A stretch of DNA of 64,000 nucleotides, taken from assembly GCA_016220165.1 (NCBI GenBank), contig JACRIE010000022.1, positions 5,456-69,455 on the forward strand, read 5' to 3'. Made by a program: the position numbers and the translations under genes. The notes under the pieces are model-generated. The model did not search any database. It was not told where the DNA came from and saw nothing but the letters and a program-made list of their open reading frames with translations. The stretch is from Candidatus Peregrinibacteria bacterium (GTDB lineage: Bacteria > Patescibacteriota > Gracilibacteria > UM-FILTER-43-11 > JACRIE01). Shown one piece after another: positions 2,835-46,980 of this stretch (positions are counted from its first letter, which is position 1; each line of letters begins with the position of its first letter).

Positions 2835-4616
2835 ATGATGGCACCTAGTGATGGAAACGCGGCGGCGGCCTCAGTAACAGAAGGAAAAGATCATGCTCTT
2901 TTTCCTCCCGATACTGCCCACGCAGATCATGGAAGAAGAAGGGCAAAGTGCGCAGTAGGAGGAGTGGTAGGTCAAACTGCCCGGGAAGTGCATGCGACAT
3001 TGAATCCTGAAACTGCTGAATTGATACGAGCGACCATGATCGCAATCGATCATTATTTAAAGGCGCTCAATGAGGACAGAGAAATAGTATCCGAACGGGA
3101 TGCTCGATATCTACAATACTTTTTAAAGGGTTTTATTACTGAACGAGATGAACGCGCGGATGAAGTAGAGTCAGGCGAAGTTCATAGGGCGGCAAAAATT
3201 ATGAATAAACTTTTTAAAATGCCGCCCTTTGCATTTCTCTGTATCGATGGACGTGTTAATTTAACCCAACTGTTTGGCTTTGCGCTCCATATGAAAGGAG
3301 GCTCTATCCAATTACCCGCGGGTAAACCAAAAGAATTTGTTCGAAAAAAAGGCGGGGGAAGGATGCTAGATCCCAATTCAAATACGGCTCGTCAAACTGA
3401 CTTAGCGCTAGGGCAGCACTCGCGGATACTCCACATCCTGGATGCCCATTCAGCATGCGCTGCTCAAAAAAAACATCAAATCAGTGTGGGGAAATCGATT
3501 AAAGATGATGGACTTTATCAAGACGTGCTCTGGAAGCGGGAAATGGCCAAAGCTTTGGTCGACTACGCGACGGAAAGACACAAAGGAAAAACAATTATTC
3601 CAATTCAGGTCAGTTTCGATCTTCCGCATGAAGCCCATGGCGAATTTCAGCCTGGATACATGTTCATGGGGCTCGAAAAAGAAGAAGCGCTGGAGGATGC
3701 GCACGCGAAAAAAGAAGGATTTACTCCCCATGTCTTGGCAAAATTAGTGGAAAAAGGGGTGATTATCAGCACAGCCAACATGGCCCATCGTCCCGAAATC
3801 GAACGTGCTTTTGCAAGTCATTATGAAACCTTCAATCCGCCTCATGACTGGACTCGGCATTACAAAGAGACTGCGTTCCAGCTATGGGACATAATGGAAA
3901 CAATGCAGGCGGATATACTCCCTTTTTTTCAAGCAGAAGTTCAAAAGACTTTCCCTTCGATGAGAAATGAGGAAGAAATCAATGACCGTGCCATGCTTCT
4001 GCTCTCCAATGCTTTTAACGCGTACTGCAATAATCAACACCCGGGAGGATATCCGGACGGAGACCATAAAGAAAAGGCCGTAAGCGTCACAGAACGCGAC
4101 GCGCGCCCATGTCCTACCATGACCTTTGGAGTGAATAGTTTGGATCACGACACGGTAGCGTCGACTACAGTATTTGGTTCTGGAATTGTGCGCACCGTGC
4201 GGGAAAAAGGCCGTGATACTGAAGCGCAAAAATTTTATGAAACGGATCAGGAATATATCGGGGCGCCGGTGCCGGTGGTTGTCAAAGAAATTGTTCGCCA
4301 TCCTATTGATCAACAGGAATGGGAACAGCTTAGAGCGGTCGACTGGGAATTCATACAGGGAATTAATTGGAAAAAACTTAGTGACAATGAATTCGCCAAT
4401 CGATTAGAGGCTCACAATCCTGGTATTAAAATCGGCAGAAGAACAGGAATCTCTATGAACCAATTGCGAAAAACCATGGCAAAACTCTATGATCGCCGCG
4501 GTGAAAGCGCCGAATTATTGATGGATGGCAATCTCGTTGCTTTGCCATTCTTGGCAGACCGCAGCCGCCGCCTTCAGGTCCTGGTACCGTTCTTTTTGAA
4601 GGGTTTCGACGTTTAA
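2835..4616 (+). CDS. Hypothetical protein with beta-carbonic-anhydrase-like zinc motifs
   Basis: CIDGR (CxDxR) and HSAC (HxxC) motifs; 593 aa. Confidence 0.5.
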   Translation: MMAPSDGNAAAASVTEGKDHALFPPDTAHADHGRRRAKCAVGGVVGQTAREVHATLNPETAELIRATMIAIDHYLKALNEDREIVSERDARYLQYFLKGFITERDERADEVESGEVHRAAKIMNKLFKMPPFAFLCIDGRVNLTQLFGFALHMKGGSIQLPAGKPKEFVRKKGGGRMLDPNSNTARQTDLALGQHSRILHILDAHSACAAQKKHQISVGKSIKDDGLYQDVLWKREMAKALVDYATERHKGKTIIPIQVSFDLPHEAHGEFQPGYMFMGLEKEEALEDAHAKKEGFTPHVLAKLVEKGVIISTANMAHRPEIERAFASHYETFNPPHDWTRHYKETAFQLWDIMETMQADILPFFQAEVQKTFPSMRNEEEINDRAMLLLSNAFNAYCNNQHPGGYPDGDHKEKAVSVTERDARPCPTMTFGVNSLDHDTVASTTVFGSGIVRTVREKGRDTEAQKFYETDQEYIGAPVPVVVKEIVRHPIDQQEWEQLRAVDWEFIQGINWKKLSDNEFANRLEAHNPGIKIGRRTGISMNQLRKTMAKLYDRRGESAELLMDGNLVALPFLADRSRRLQVLVPFFLKGFDV

Positions 4617-4622
4617 ATAATC

Positions 4623-4675
4623 AAATAAGCTTTTATCTGGCTAATAACTAACCGCTAATAGCTAAAAGCTTATTT
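4623..4675. repeat. 13-bp stem hairpin containing a GCTAAnn array at a convergent junction (possible terminator)
   Basis: aaataagctttta ... taaaagcttattt; gctaata actaacc gctaata gctaaaa. Confidence 0.7.
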
Positions 4676-5989
4676 AATCGTCGTCCCGATATAAAAAAAT
4701 GGCAACATGACGGCCAGAAGCGTTGATCCGACCAGCGCCGCCACCACAAAAATCATGAGCGGCTCGATGACGGACGAAAGATTCTTGAGAGTGTAATCGA
4801 TACTCTTTTTGTAGTTCGACCGGACTTTGAGGAGCATTTTACCGATTTTGCCCGTAGTCTCGCCAATGTGCACGAGTTGCGCGACCTGGAGGGGAAAGAG
4901 GCTTTTTCGCTTGGCATCCTGTCCAGATGAGAGATCGACAAGCCCCATCATTTCGCTCATCCCCTGCCCCATCATCACGCCCTGGCGGATTTTGGAGAGC
5001 TCTTGTTCGTAGTGGAGACTGCCCATGGTTTTGGCCGTGATCTCCAGGGCGTCGGTGATCAGCACGCCGCTTTGCATGAGCATGCCAAGGTTGGCCGAAA
5101 AAATCATGATCTGTTTTTCAGTCGCGATCTTGCCAAAAATCGGCATATAGGCCGTAAAACTCTCCCACAAAAAACGCCCAAAGCGGGTAAAATGCACCAA
5201 GCTCCATAAAAAAAGAAGGATGCCGGCAACGCCCAAAAACAAAAATTTCCAGTTCATCGAAACAAATTGGCTAAGCGCGATCACCTTTTGAGTGAGAACC
5301 GGCAACGACACATTCGCGTCCTTGTACATCGATGAAATTTTGGGAATAACAAATAGCATCATGCCCGTGATGAGCGTGATACACATGACAATGAGGATGG
5401 CCGGATAAAACATCGCGCCGGTCACCTTGCGGACAAAATCCTGATGCCCTTCCATCTCTTCCGTGAGTTCGGCTAAAACGGTTTTAAGATTGCCGCTTTT
5501 TTCGCCCGCTTCCACCAGGGCCGACATCATTTCGGGAAAAAGATGAGGCAATCCGCGCATGCTTTGGGCCAGCCCCATGCCCCCGTTGATGTCGTGAATC
5601 ATCTGGGCGTAAATCTTCTTGAGAGATCCGCTCTTCGCTTGACGCTGAATAATAGTGAGCGCGGGAATGAGCGTGACGCCCGAATCGATCAGCGTCGCGA
5701 GCTGGTCGAAGAAAAAAAGCCGTTCCTTGCCCGACAGCCTCAGCATCCTGAGCGACCAGGACAGTTTATTGGTTTCCTTCTTTATCTTTTCCCTCTTCTC
5801 AATCTTTACGGCTTCTTTCGGTTGCACTAGGACCCTCGAAGGGGCTCCTTCGAGACCGCTATTCGGCCCGCCATCTGGCTTGCTATCCGTAATCATCTTC
5901 TTCCTGGAAAAAATCCGCTCAAAAAACAGCTCCAGCTCAAACCCGAGCGCAATCCATCCATCCCGAATTTTGTGCGCTAGGAAGCTCAT
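4670..5989 (-). CDS. pilC: Type II secretion/type IV pilus platform protein (PilC/GspF)
   Basis: QLATLIDSGV, AGEKSGNL, AMFYP, IGETTG, IEPLMI motifs. Confidence 0.9.
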   Translation of the reverse strand: MSFLAHKIRDGWIALGFELELFFERIFSRKKMITDSKPDGGPNSGLEGAPSRVLVQPKEAVKIEKREKIKKETNKLSWSLRMLRLSGKERLFFFDQLATLIDSGVTLIPALTIIQRQAKSGSLKKIYAQMIHDINGGMGLAQSMRGLPHLFPEMMSALVEAGEKSGNLKTVLAELTEEMEGHQDFVRKVTGAMFYPAILIVMCITLITGMMLFVIPKISSMYKDANVSLPVLTQKVIALSQFVSMNWKFLFLGVAGILLFLWSLVHFTRFGRFLWESFTAYMPIFGKIATEKQIMIFSANLGMLMQSGVLITDALEITAKTMGSLHYEQELSKIRQGVMMGQGMSEMMGLVDLSSGQDAKRKSLFPLQVAQLVHIGETTGKIGKMLLKVRSNYKKSIDYTLKNLSSVIEPLMIFVVAALVGSTLLAVMLPFFYIGTTIK

Positions 5990-6017
5990 TCAAAATTAAA
6001 AATTAAAAAATTCAAAA

Positions 6018-6386
6018 TTATTTTTTATGAGAAGAAATTGAAAAAATACCAAATTTTGCAAGTTGCCTGGAAATATTTAAACTATCAGATTTTAGTTCAT
6101 TAAATTGCTCTTCCTCCAAATAACGGTTATCGAAAGCAATATAAAAAACAGCGCGACATTCTCCGGCAGAAGCCTTCGCCTGATTAATGAATCGAGCAAA
6201 ATCTATATTGGATGCACGTTCAAAACCCTCAGAAATATTCAAAAGTATTGATACGGCGGCTCGACGTAGCTGATCCCTCAAACCAAAATCACGCCCAAAC
6301 TGTTTCTCGGTAATTTTGTAAATTCTAGAAACAAAACGTCTCACTTCCTGCCACAATGGTATATCTCCAAAAGTTTGGTATTTCGT
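6018..6386 (-). CDS. Four-helix-bundle protein (TIGR02436 / 23S rRNA IVS protein / Avd-like); start codon uncertain
   Basis: LRDQLRRAAVSILLNISEGFER...AKASAGECR; frame extends upstream of TTG 6356 as (ACG)KYQTFGDIPLWQ with no ATG. Confidence 0.85.
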   Translation of the reverse strand, partial: TKYQTFGDIPLWQEVRRFVSRIYKITEKQFGRDFGLRDQLRRAAVSILLNISEGFERASNIDFARFINQAKASAGECRAVFYIAFDNRYLEEEQFNELKSDSLNISRQLAKFGIFSISSHKK

Positions 6387-6415
6387 ATTAATTTTGAATT
6401 AAATAGTATCTTAAT

Positions 6416-6444
6416 ATTATATCAAAATACGCCAAGAAAAACAA
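6416..6444 (-). promoter_or_regulatory. Putative sigma70 promoter inside the cassette
   Basis: Minus strand TTGTTT-17bp-TATAAT with TG extended -10. Confidence 0.55.
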
Positions 6445-6495
6445 GGGGTTTTGGCTTAACTACATTATTAAGCAACACACTTAATTTTGAATTTT

Positions 6496-7200
6496 CTAAT
6501 TTTTAATTTTGAATGAAAAGGACGATCCGAACACCTTTTTCAGAACGCTGAGCAGATCCATTGGGATCGGCGCCTCAATCGTGATAAGCTGTTTGAGGAA
6601 AGGGTGCATGAAACGGATCCGTTTCGCGTGCAAAAAAAGTCGGCCAAGCCGCAGAACAATGCGAAATTTACGATTAAACGCGAAATCCCCGTATTCGGCG
6701 TCCATGATGACGGGGCAGCCGATCCGCGAAAAGTGCTCGCGAATCTGATGGCGACGCCCTGTTTCGATTACGGCCTCAACCAAGGCGCAGGAAGCGCCGA
6801 AAATACGCATAGTTTTTAAAATACTAAAATGAGTTTTAGCCTCAACAGACACGTCCGCCGTACGGGCTTTGAGTGGGATTTGAACAGAATCCCCGCGCGG
6901 GACTCCCTTTAGAAAAGTGAGATAACTTTTTTCAGTTTCCGAATGCTGGAAAATGGCTTCCAAAGGAGTCCGGTCGCGCTCAAATTTTCCAAAAAGCAAT
7001 ACGCCAGATGTCTCCTTGTCTAACCGATGCAGCAAATAGGGTTTAAACCCTTTGCCTTCATACCGGCGCTGAACTTTGCCAAGAACCGACGCATTCAAAG
7101 ACGTCTGCGGATTGGGTACGGAAACCACGCGCGGCGGCTTCTGGATCGCGATCAAATAATCATCCTCATAAAGAGTGGGGATGAGATCTTTTTTAGGCAT
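6496..7200 (-). CDS. RluA-family pseudouridine synthase
   Basis: HRLDKETSG, TGRRHQIR and LFLHA motifs. Confidence 0.92.
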   Translation of the reverse strand: MPKKDLIPTLYEDDYLIAIQKPPRVVSVPNPQTSLNASVLGKVQRRYEGKGFKPYLLHRLDKETSGVLLFGKFERDRTPLEAIFQHSETEKSYLTFLKGVPRGDSVQIPLKARTADVSVEAKTHFSILKTMRIFGASCALVEAVIETGRRHQIREHFSRIGCPVIMDAEYGDFAFNRKFRIVLRLGRLFLHAKRIRFMHPFLKQLITIEAPIPMDLLSVLKKVFGSSFSFKIKN

Positions 7201-7226: not shown

Positions 7227-7829
7227 TTATCGGGATGCAAGCACCGAGTCCCCTGCAGTCGTTCCGGAAGGAACCGCTGCCATGGCCGCATCAAAACGGG
7301 CACGGGCCCCACTTTCACCGCCGTCATTATCACTCCCTGCATACTGAGCTCCTTCGCCTTTTTCTCCAATTCTTCTAATGAAATAATAAATATCCTTTTC
7401 TCCTGCAAAACGAATCGCTTCCAGACAAAAACGTTCTCCATTCATTTCAAAAATCTCACCGGGTTTTACGTTTTCTCTTTGTACAAATTCCAACTCCTGA
7501 CCCTCTAGTCTCACAGCCCCTTCGCAGAACTTGGCGCCTCTGAGCACACGCTGCTCGGAAGGTGCTCTTGAAGACGGCGGATACCCGCGAAGGCGTTCGG
7601 CAATACTTCTCCGGGTTCCATCCATGACAATCTTTGGTTCGCTGAACGTATCGATCATCACACCAGCGGCGAGGGAGGCAGCCGTTAACAAAACACCCCC
7701 CGCAGCGGCACGCGTCGCTTTTGCAAAAAGCCCTCTTTGGTGAGGTAAAAGTCTGGATTTCAAAAAATCAGGGGCTCCCTCACTGCCCACGAAATCAAGT
7801 TGCGATGCTGTGGGGGCTGATGGCGTCAT
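7227..7829 (-). CDS. Hypothetical protein, one predicted TM segment
   Basis: 200-aa ORF with hydrophobic AAAGGVLLTAASLAAGVMI; no family recognised. Confidence 0.55.
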   Translation of the reverse strand: MTPSAPTASQLDFVGSEGAPDFLKSRLLPHQRGLFAKATRAAAGGVLLTAASLAAGVMIDTFSEPKIVMDGTRRSIAERLRGYPPSSRAPSEQRVLRGAKFCEGAVRLEGQELEFVQRENVKPGEIFEMNGERFCLEAIRFAGEKDIYYFIRRIGEKGEGAQYAGSDNDGGESGARARFDAAMAAVPSGTTAGDSVLASR

Positions 7830-29844: not shown

Positions 29845-29914
29845 AGCTTTTAGCGATTAGCTCTTAGCTATTAGTCAGAGCTAAAAGCTAGAAGCTAACA
29901 GCTAAAAGCTAATC
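29845..29914. repeat. Inverted TTAGC/GCTAA heptamer arrays after atpC, followed by a TGnTATAAT extended -10 for trxB
   Basis: agctttt agcgatt agctctt agctatt / gctaaaa gctagaa gctaaca gctaaaa gctaatc. Confidence 0.88.
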
Positions 29915-29944
29915 TGCTATAATAATTCCGCCTAATCTTTTGCT

Positions 29945-46497: not shown

Positions 46498-46980
46498 ACA
46501 TTTGACAACTGACATTTGACAATTGACCGAATAACCGATGAAAAAATTTCGCTTCAGAGAATTTCAGGTCTATAGAGATTCAAGAAAATTTAGTAGTAAA
46601 AATTTAAAATCTTTAACAAGGATTAAATTTCCTAAGGAGGAACAATTCTGCCTCACTTCACAGCTCTGGAGAGCTTTGGATTCAATAATATTAAATATCG
46701 CAGAAGGTTCCGATCGAGGTACGGACAAAGATTTCGCGCATTTTTTAAATACTTCACACACTTCTCTTAATGAAGTTGTCGCGTGTCTGGATGTCGCCTT
46801 AGATAGCAAATATCTTACAGAAAAAGAACATGATGAATGTCTTAAGGAATCAGAATTATTAGGAAATCAATTAACAGCATTCCGAAAAAGACTTCTGGAT
46901 AATCCAACCAAATAGGAACTATGCCAAAAGTTAAAAGCCAGATATCAACGGTCAATTGTCAAATGTCAAAAGTCAAATGT
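46498..46980. mobile_element. Second four-helix-bundle cassette bounded by 32-bp inverted TGACA arms
   Basis: 46498-46529 versus 46949-46980: 29/32 complementary; mobility is inferred only. Confidence 0.6.
46538..46915 (+). CDS. Four-helix-bundle protein (TIGR02436 / IVS protein / Avd-like)
   Basis: FREFQVY...FPKEEQFCLTSQLWRALDSIILNIAEG...SLNEV. Confidence 0.92.
   Translation: MKKFRFREFQVYRDSRKFSSKNLKSLTRIKFPKEEQFCLTSQLWRALDSIILNIAEGSDRGTDKDFAHFLNTSHTSLNEVVACLDVALDSKYLTEKEHDECLKESELLGNQLTAFRKRLLDNPTK

Follow-up and report, generated by a model that had tools for sequence, protein, structure and literature searches.

Organization of the rluA–pilC junction

The stretch of DNA analysed here (the window) comprises 64,000 nucleotides from a Candidatus Peregrinibacteria bacterium (assembly GCA_016220165.1, contig JACRIE010000022.1, positions 5,456 to 69,455). 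Within it, a small gene of the four-helix-bundle (4HB) family is present at the junction between an RluA-family pseudouridine synthase gene (rluA) and a gene for a PilC/GspF-type platform protein (pilC), where it is framed by two inverted arrays of heptamers (the arms), which include the stop codon of the gene before it and the start codon of the gene after it. All three genes, i.e. rluA (6496–7200; 234 aa; PF00849, E 7e-21), the 4HB gene (6018–6356; 112 aa from a TTG start; PF05635, E 1.5e-30; TIGR02436, E 3.2e-29) and pilC (4670–5989; 439 aa; T2SSF PF00482, E 2.8e-48), are on the minus strand. This arrangement, referred to as a cassette, is real and is more general than first thought, inverted arrays being present around most of the 4HB genes scored in the same order of bacteria and in other phyla.

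The arms are 35-nt inverted repeats at 5986–6020 and 6482–6516, which are complementary at 34 of 35 positions (97%) and separated by 461 nt; Tandem Repeats Finder (TRF) assigns a period of 7 to both, with 4.6 and 4.7 copies. When up to three mismatches are allowed, the two arms are the sole matches to the arm pattern in the window, and none of 100 dinucleotide shuffles has a match. On the mRNA strand the 5' arm (6482–6516, minus strand) consists of about five AAAATT-type heptamers and encodes the C-terminal SFKIKN of RluA and its TAG stop codon (6498–6496, arm positions 19–21), so that both the tail and the stop of rluA come from the arm. The 3' arm (5986–6020, minus strand), an inverted heptamer array, opens with the TAA of the 4HB gene (6020–6018) and contains the pilC ATG (5989–5987) at positions 32–34 of its 35, so that the ATG faces bases 2–4 of the 5' arm, close to the bottom of the predicted stem. 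The lone mismatch is A6006 versus C6496 on the plus strand, and hence U versus G on the sense strand, the G being the final base of the rluA TAG. In the minimum-energy fold of the 581-nt sense RNA all 35 pairs are closed (−146 kcal/mol, z −4.13), and none of 100 shuffles is as stable.

A sequence-only reading of the window had described a 35-bp inverted repeat of AAAATT-type heptamers at this site, with a single mismatch that becomes G-U in the mRNA, the rluA stop in its 5' arm, the 4HB stop and pilC ATG in its 3' arm, and a TIGR02436-family gene between them. The complementarity, the open reading frame (ORF) coordinates and the PF05635 and TIGR02436 profile scores agree with this description throughout. 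The same reading gave the loop a putative promoter of its own. The AT-rich leader in the loop (6357–6481, minus strand; GC ~0.29) has a perfect extended −10 motif (TGATATAAT) at 6416–6424 on the minus strand, one of five such motifs in the window versus 1.39 expected, but a scan for paired −35 and −10 hexamers was at chance level (2 sites versus 3.0 expected), and a separate promoter within the cassette loop is a weak prediction. The leader also includes a third, shorter arm-like copy (6388–6403), for which pairing of 12–13 nt with the 3' arm is possible. The GC content of the cassette is 0.29–0.37, versus ~0.5 in its flanks, and no terminator-like site was found on the minus strand between 5800 and 7400, the cassette lacking the short GC-rich hairpin and U-run of an intrinsic terminator.

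In the surroundings of the cassette, a GCTAATA-type heptamer array (4640–4670) adjoins the pilC stop, so that pilC has arrays at both of its ends. The neighbours of the locus, a 593-aa ORF at 2835–4616 on the plus strand and a 200-aa ORF at 7227–7829 on the minus strand, have no Pfam match at E <= 0.01.

The four-helix-bundle gene

The product of the 4HB gene scores above the curated cut-off across the whole domain, both with PF05635 (106 bits versus a cut-off of 33.8; profile positions 5–105 of 106) and with TIGR02436 (101.4 bits versus 24), and its closest solved structures are PDB 2gsc and 2rld. Its reading frame is open upstream to 6398 and there encodes an N terminus like those of its relatives (..TKYQTFGDIPLWQ) without an ATG, GTG or TTG; the first usable start is the TTG, which has a GGAG ~9 nt on its 5' side. 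The 4HB proteins of relatives begin M-x-Y-K/Q-T-F, and the ancestral ATG has been lost in the rluA–pilC copy.

The nearest relative of the protein (locus L086; 68% identity) belongs to another family of bacteria, where its gene has AAAATT-type arms as here and different flanking genes; the occurrence of an orthologue with the same arm type among other neighbours argues that the cassette moves as a unit. More generally, 28 of 75 pairs of 4HB proteins with at least 60% identity have arm 7-mers in common, versus 1.7–3.5% of more distant pairs.

Other cassettes in the same genome

Eight PF05635 matches, seven of them above the cut-off, occur in the genome, which is 98% complete with a GC content of 0.48 and an assembly of 1.217 Mb (73 contigs). 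One of these (C8:32723–33148) sits within the 23S rRNA gene, as identified by an Rfam LSU match. This copy (C8:32683–33219, L007) is a 548-nt insert standing in place of a hairpin tip, at positions ~680–693 of the Rfam LSU model; its arms are of 27 nt, and both of their two mismatches are G·U on the rRNA strand. It is a classical ORF-bearing intervening sequence (IVS). With 1929 model positions matched over 2698 nt, the 23S rRNA gene is likely to have further insertions.

Other copies lie between protein genes and have arms of GACGAGA, TTGACAA, AGCTNTT and TAATTTC types, each pair being complementary. A second cassette within the window, on the plus strand, has 32-nt arms of TTGACAA/TGACATT units at 46498–46529 and 46949–46980, with its ORF at 46538–46915. 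It is located between the gene for a PilB-like ATPase, which ends in ITIEEAIKVMT before its stop, and a pilin-like gene, the probable start and leader of which (MSKVKCANG/FSLVELL, with the slash at the cleavage position) are within the 3' arm. Thus, the arms vary in sequence among copies and stay complementary, in accord with the covariation looked for at the suggestion of the sequence-only reading; its proposal of an intervening-type cassette in an operon also holds, the genome's own 23S rRNA gene having one of the same build.

A copy on another contig (C24:95270–95720, L005) is a cassette of different or rearranged layout. Its 4HB gene comes directly after a tRNA gene, both arm-like arrays (AAGAATTAAG and CTTAATTCTT) are upstream of the ORF, and the 4HB stop overlaps the start of the next gene (ATGA).

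Association of 4HB genes with inverted arrays

PF05635 is present in 27 of 32 genomes of the order; the matches total 199, and a single ~1-Mb genome can have as many as 16. From these, 74 places were taken (34 with loci and the next 40 by score), of which six were dropped near contig ends and 68 scored. Each gene was given the score of the best inverted repeat, without gaps, that its two 220-nt flanks can form, and controls were windows of the same geometry shifted by 600–900 nt. A score of at least 13 was reached at 51 of the 68 4HB genes versus 0 of 190 controls, and a score of at least 11 at 57/68 versus 2/190. The rluA–pilC cassette scores 32; the control maximum is 11.

A cross-phylum scan used one genome per species and a query alignment of six sequences, and returned 591 relatives. 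The best 80 loci were from Bacteroidota, Acidobacteriota, Clostridia, Planctomycetota, Chloroflexota, candidate phyla radiation (CPR) lineages and others; after five were dropped, scores of at least 13 were found at 45 of 75 4HB genes versus 3 of 286 controls. The enrichment of inverted arms around 4HB genes is therefore observed in both surveys. Heptamers predominate among the arm units that have a clear periodicity.

The cassettes so identified occupy junctions between co-oriented genes. The upstream neighbour is on the same strand as the cassette in 39 of 51 cases in the order and 39 of 45 in the cross-phylum set; no more than ~25 nt separate the upstream stop from the beginning of the left arm, and 0–35 nt separate the end of the right arm from the next start. 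In the 5' arm, read on the coding strand, G exceeds C in 38 cassettes versus 9 with the reverse in the order, and in 39 versus 4 in the cross-phylum set. Orientation and base polarity together argue for some constraint that is specific to the transcript or to the coding strand. Stop codons are one candidate for such a constraint, since the 5' arm has stops in all three frames in 24 of 51 cassettes (11.2 expected) and 20 of 45 (9.9 expected). This enrichment is ~2-fold over shuffled arms, and a need for stops in every frame was set aside as an explanation of the period of 7.

AGTGACG/CTCGTCA-type heptamers, the commonest array family in the genome studied here (33 arrays), also form the arms of 4HB genes in Planctomycetota, Acidobacteriota and Verrucomicrobiota (L142, L177, L181), a recurrence across phyla which suggests that the types of arm unit are not random; many arm units contain TAG, TGA or TAA.

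Turnover at orthologous junctions

Adjacency of rluA and pilC was seen in none of the relatives searched. No RluA gene was found within 1.5 kb of PilC at any of 29 relatives' loci (L010–L038, i.e. 28 orthologues and the 30%-identical paralogue L038), and in a metagenome relative with a 56%-identical RluA the gene ends in ..VLKKIFGKKILF at its stop codon without a cassette and has a convergent neighbour. Contigs from four DNA runs gave no piece bridging the junction, the arm bins drawing many foreign contigs, and a ~90%-identical relative in them was represented only by pieces of 173 and 468 nt.

At the junction between pilB and the pilin-like gene, upstream of pilC, turnover was observed. Of 26 relatives' loci, six have full 4HB cassettes, three ORF-less hairpins and two solo arrays; seven are clean, with short leaders, three have pilB adjoining pilC, and five were unclassified. 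At five of the six cassette loci (L012, L018, L025, L033 and L034) the 4HB frame continues without a stop across a 3' arm built of 9-nt instead of 7-nt units and on into the pilin-like gene, giving fused ORFs of 345–389 aa, and a separate start codon before the G/F prepilin cleavage motif was not seen in any of the five. The fused 4HB domain would then be a pilin leader of ~125 aa, unless the pilin start lies elsewhere, unseen.

A similar range of states occurs between gmk and nadD in 30 Flavobacterium species (Gmk 85–100% identical; 30 of 59 matches from 61 genomes). Nine have a 4HB cassette, one of them degenerate, and ten have ORF-less inverted repeats (score at least 12, spacers of 57–111 nt), several of which share TAGTNNN units with the full cassettes. 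The spacer is at most 42 nt in four species, holds unrelated ORFs in two, and in four is of 56–110 nt with weaker repeats; in the last (L298) the heptamers are replaced by about six tandem 43-nt repeats, 254 nt in total, each with a short palindrome. The empty or short-loop alleles that the sequence-only reading had anticipated are thus found at the pilB and gmk junctions, but no empty allele was found for the rluA–pilC junction itself, as no relative searched has that adjacency.

Heptamer arrays in the genome

TRF detects 309 period-7 arrays in the genome, versus 2 in a block-shuffled copy, and 20 of them are within the window. Just 54 of the 309 are inside ORFs of at least 150 aa, although such ORFs make up 79% of the genome. 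They form 60 inverted pairs, of which 55 have loops of at most 102 nt and five have loops of 262–460 nt, and 35 of the 55 short-loop hairpins lie between co-oriented ORFs. One ORF-less hairpin in the window, at 29845–29912, consists of inverted AGCTNTT/AGCTAAA arrays separated by a 4-nt loop, has a folding energy of −33.7 kcal/mol for one strand and −34.9 kcal/mol for the other (z ~−5.3), and is directly followed by a TGCTATAAT motif at 29915–29923.

For 159 of 300 arrays remote from cassettes, the consensus unit is identical to an arm 7-mer of one of the genome's seven cassettes, and the arm 7-mers of the rluA–pilC cassette account for 34 other arrays. By comparison, the arms of 91 foreign cassettes match the genome's own arrays 4.2 times on average (median 1, maximum 37). 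Array density was compared across the order (16 genomes, 44–100 kb sampled from each), leaving out any array that lay no more than 300 nt from a 4HB gene. It is 0–2.3 arrays per 100 kb in nine genomes (five genera) with at most two PF05635 matches and 10–31 per 100 kb in seven genomes (six genera) with at least nine. Arrays and 4HB genes thus occur together beyond the cassettes themselves.

Interpretation of the cassette and alternative explanations

With somewhat more confidence than doubt, the rluA–pilC feature can be read as an IVS-type selfish cassette in an operon, the arms of which form an RNase III-type stem in the transcript. The three co-oriented genes would be transcribed together, and the arms would then pair as an uninterrupted 35-bp duplex, looping out the 4HB gene and rejoining the rluA stop and the pilC start; the stem in the read-through transcript would be cut by RNase III, as in the rRNA versions. 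Since such duplexes are RNase III targets in the rRNA versions and the genome encodes an RNase III (E 3.8e-39), the cassette is, by analogy, probably tolerated through looping-out or excision at the RNA level. It may alternatively be that the stem re-juxtaposes the rluA stop and pilC start, in which case termination at the UAG in the 5' arm would free the paired AUG. We infer stem formation in vivo, cleavage by RNase III, mobility of the cassette and an effect on pilC; looping-out or excision and rluA-dependent gating of pilC are hypotheses that would follow from the geometry of the arms alone.

Several observations weigh against the selfish, RNA-level reading or narrow its reach. Scores below 13 were obtained at 17 of the 68 4HB genes in the order and at 30 of the 75 in the cross-phylum set. 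In the 51 cassettes of the order there are 86 mismatches at 1226 arm positions, comprising 22 G·U on the sense strand, 23 A·C and 41 others; the lone G·U of the rluA–pilC arms is anecdotal beside these counts, G·U bias was accordingly rejected as evidence of RNA-level selection, and the lack of a G·U excess means that complementarity may be kept by a DNA-level process or by fast turnover of arrays, not by selection on an RNA stem. Ribosomes on rluA, and on the 3' arm in the fusion forms, must melt the stem. No target-site duplication was seen by eye around the cassettes, and a Pfam scan of the cassette ORF gave PF05635 only, with no recombinase or transposase. The 4HB gene of the rluA–pilC cassette may be decaying, because its ancestral ATG has been lost. 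The link between arrays and cognate cassettes is weak in seven other genomes (14 of 105 arrays on the diagonal versus ~5% off it), with only one to five cassettes in hand for each of them, and the correlation of PF05635 count with array density (Spearman 0.66, p 0.006) is drawn from samples of 44–100 kb and from genomes that are related and so not independent.

A rival explanation, which we consider unlikely though deserving of serious attention, is that a mobile or recombinogenic DNA element has the arrays as its ends, or that they are a hotspot for slippage or template switching, with RNA pairing incidental and complementarity kept by gene conversion or template switching between the arms. 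The near-equality of G·U and A·C mismatches, the dispersal of array families through the genome, the quick turnover at orthologous junctions and the presence of an orthologous cassette with the same arm type at a different locus are all in its favour. Ends recognized by a transposase would, however, not be expected to be wholly different between paralogous cassettes, as the arms here are; the ORF content and the lack of a visible target duplication count against a DNA-level element too, and the strong orientation and base polarity relative to transcription imply a strand-specific constraint. Moreover, the rRNA versions are documented to work as RNA stems (PMC4990558). A more specific candidate, a transposon or miniature inverted-repeat transposable element (MITE), was rejected, the ORF holding PF05635 only, the arms varying among copies and no flanking direct repeat being apparent by eye.

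That the stem is a dedicated regulatory device, hiding the pilC start until ribosomes ending at the rluA stop open it and so coupling pilC to rluA, seems improbable. The positions of the pilC AUG and rluA stop within the arms would suit such a role, as would the general adjoining of arms to an upstream stop and a downstream start and the recurrence of cassettes in type IV pilus clusters. The architecture is nonetheless not specific to pilC, being the same at gmk–nadD, within 23S rRNA and after a tRNA gene; some relatives have pilB directly before pilC and no cassette; and the possible internal promoter would yield transcripts without the 5' arm. That the small gene is an ordinary one, with AT-rich, low-complexity flanks that are complementary by chance, is very improbable indeed. 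The arms are AT-rich and repetitive, and AAAATT-type arrays are common in the genome, but the 34/35 match was reproduced in no shuffle, the score of the cassette is far above that of any shifted control in the order, and dozens of other 4HB genes have the same layout with arms richer in GC, such that the shuffles and both shifted-control surveys effectively refute the chance explanation.

Returning to the selfish cassette, the seven or eight 4HB cassettes of the genome, the ORF-less hairpins (at least 55) and the ~300 arrays behave like autonomous and deletion-derived members of one family, which in turn behaves like one that is selfish, and mobile or at least quick to turn over. A broader and more speculative proposal, which we put forward only tentatively, is that 4HB proteins are the partner of an unrecognized, phylum-spanning class of heptamer hairpin-array elements at intercistronic junctions. 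The 4HB cassettes would be its autonomous members and the ORF-less hairpins and solo arrays their derivatives; each 4HB paralogue would recognize its own heptamer family and maintain or spread it, much as in the REP/RAYT system discussed below, and the ORF-bearing 23S IVSs would be copies that landed in rRNA.

To our knowledge, the function of the very widespread PF05635/TIGR02436 proteins and the origin of the rRNA intervening sequences have stood open for some thirty years, and we know of no explanation for the abundant heptamer arrays of bacteria. The present results tie together 4HB genes, cassettes at operon junctions and in rRNA, ORF-less hairpins at the same sites and genome-wide arrays, and through these links make such questions directly testable; were the hairpin-array proposal true, it would provide an origin for the enigmatic arrays. 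There is also a practical warning for annotation, in that the arms of a cassette can provide a neighbouring gene with its stop or start codon.

Comparison with known systems

The closest parallels are the ORF-bearing IVSs of 23S rRNA, as in Coxiella burnetii and Leptospira (PMC4990558) and in the rRNA copy of the genome itself. Features in common are terminal inverted repeats forming a stem of ~28–35 bp, tandem heptamers in the stem region, a sense PF05635 ORF in a loop of ~430–540 nt and read-through transcription from the host gene, which for the cassette is a prediction. In Coxiella, the IVS encloses an S23p ORF, has tandem heptamers and a 28-bp stem at its ends, and is a substrate of RNase III in vitro; the same paper cites similar behaviour for the IVSs of Salmonella, Leptospira and others (PMC4990558). 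The rluA–pilC cassette shares the near-perfect long terminal stem (34 Watson–Crick pairs and one G·U over 35 nt) and, with the ORF-bearing subclass, the sense PF05635 ORF in the loop and the heptamers in the stem. By contrast with the rRNA insertions, which replace the tip of an rRNA helix, it lies between two protein genes, and its arms carry the stop and start codons of these flanking genes. An Rfam search at the locus (L003) gave no match, and, as the defining rRNA location is absent, the cassette is not a true IVS. Only for the forms in rRNA has excision by RNase III been documented. The full-text literature searched, a body that leaves most subscription journals outside its coverage, yielded no description of inverted heptamer arrays around PF05635 genes at sites other than rRNA.

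PF05635 also resembles Avd, the accessory protein of diversity-generating retroelements (PMC10053308), with which the 4HB protein shares a homologous fold and family. It differs from Avd in context, there being no template or variable repeat and instead many copies per genome, each between inverted arrays. A diversity-generating retroelement was rejected, since no match to the reverse transcriptase family PF00078 was found in the 98%-complete genome.

Repetitive extragenic palindrome (REP) and REPIN sequences and their REP-associated tyrosine transposase (RAYT) genes offer another comparison, in that a small gene lies between two opposed copies of a short repeat, the same repeat being found in many intergenic hairpins without an ORF, and each copy of the gene has a repeat family of its own, as is seen for the cassettes within the genome studied here. 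The RAYT protein is a Y1 (HUH) transposase, and REP repeats are single palindromes. The cassettes share with this system a gene between inverted repeats, other members of whose family are scattered through the genome (34 arrays for the rluA–pilC arms; 159/300 overall). They differ in having a four-helix bundle without a known catalytic domain, no Y1 (HUH) transposase match being among the Pfam results for the ORF, and tandem heptamer arrays as their repeats; their mobility is putative.

Heptamer arrays as such are not new. The short tandemly repeated repetitive (STRR) sequences of cyanobacteria are heptamer simple-sequence arrays. In Xanthomonas there are GGGAATC heptamer arrays, with 70–75 convergent pairs that could form stem-loops (PMC4692102), and in Beggiatoaceae TAACTGA heptamer arrays (PMC4679880); term searches of the two reports gave no hit for 4HB or IVS genes. 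The full-text literature searched has no link between PF05635 and genome-wide heptamer arrays, prior mention elsewhere being possible. What the arrays described here have in common with these bacterial examples is their abundance as intergenic tandem heptamers; they differ in their link to PF05635 genes, which is seen at single loci as well as in the comparison between genomes.

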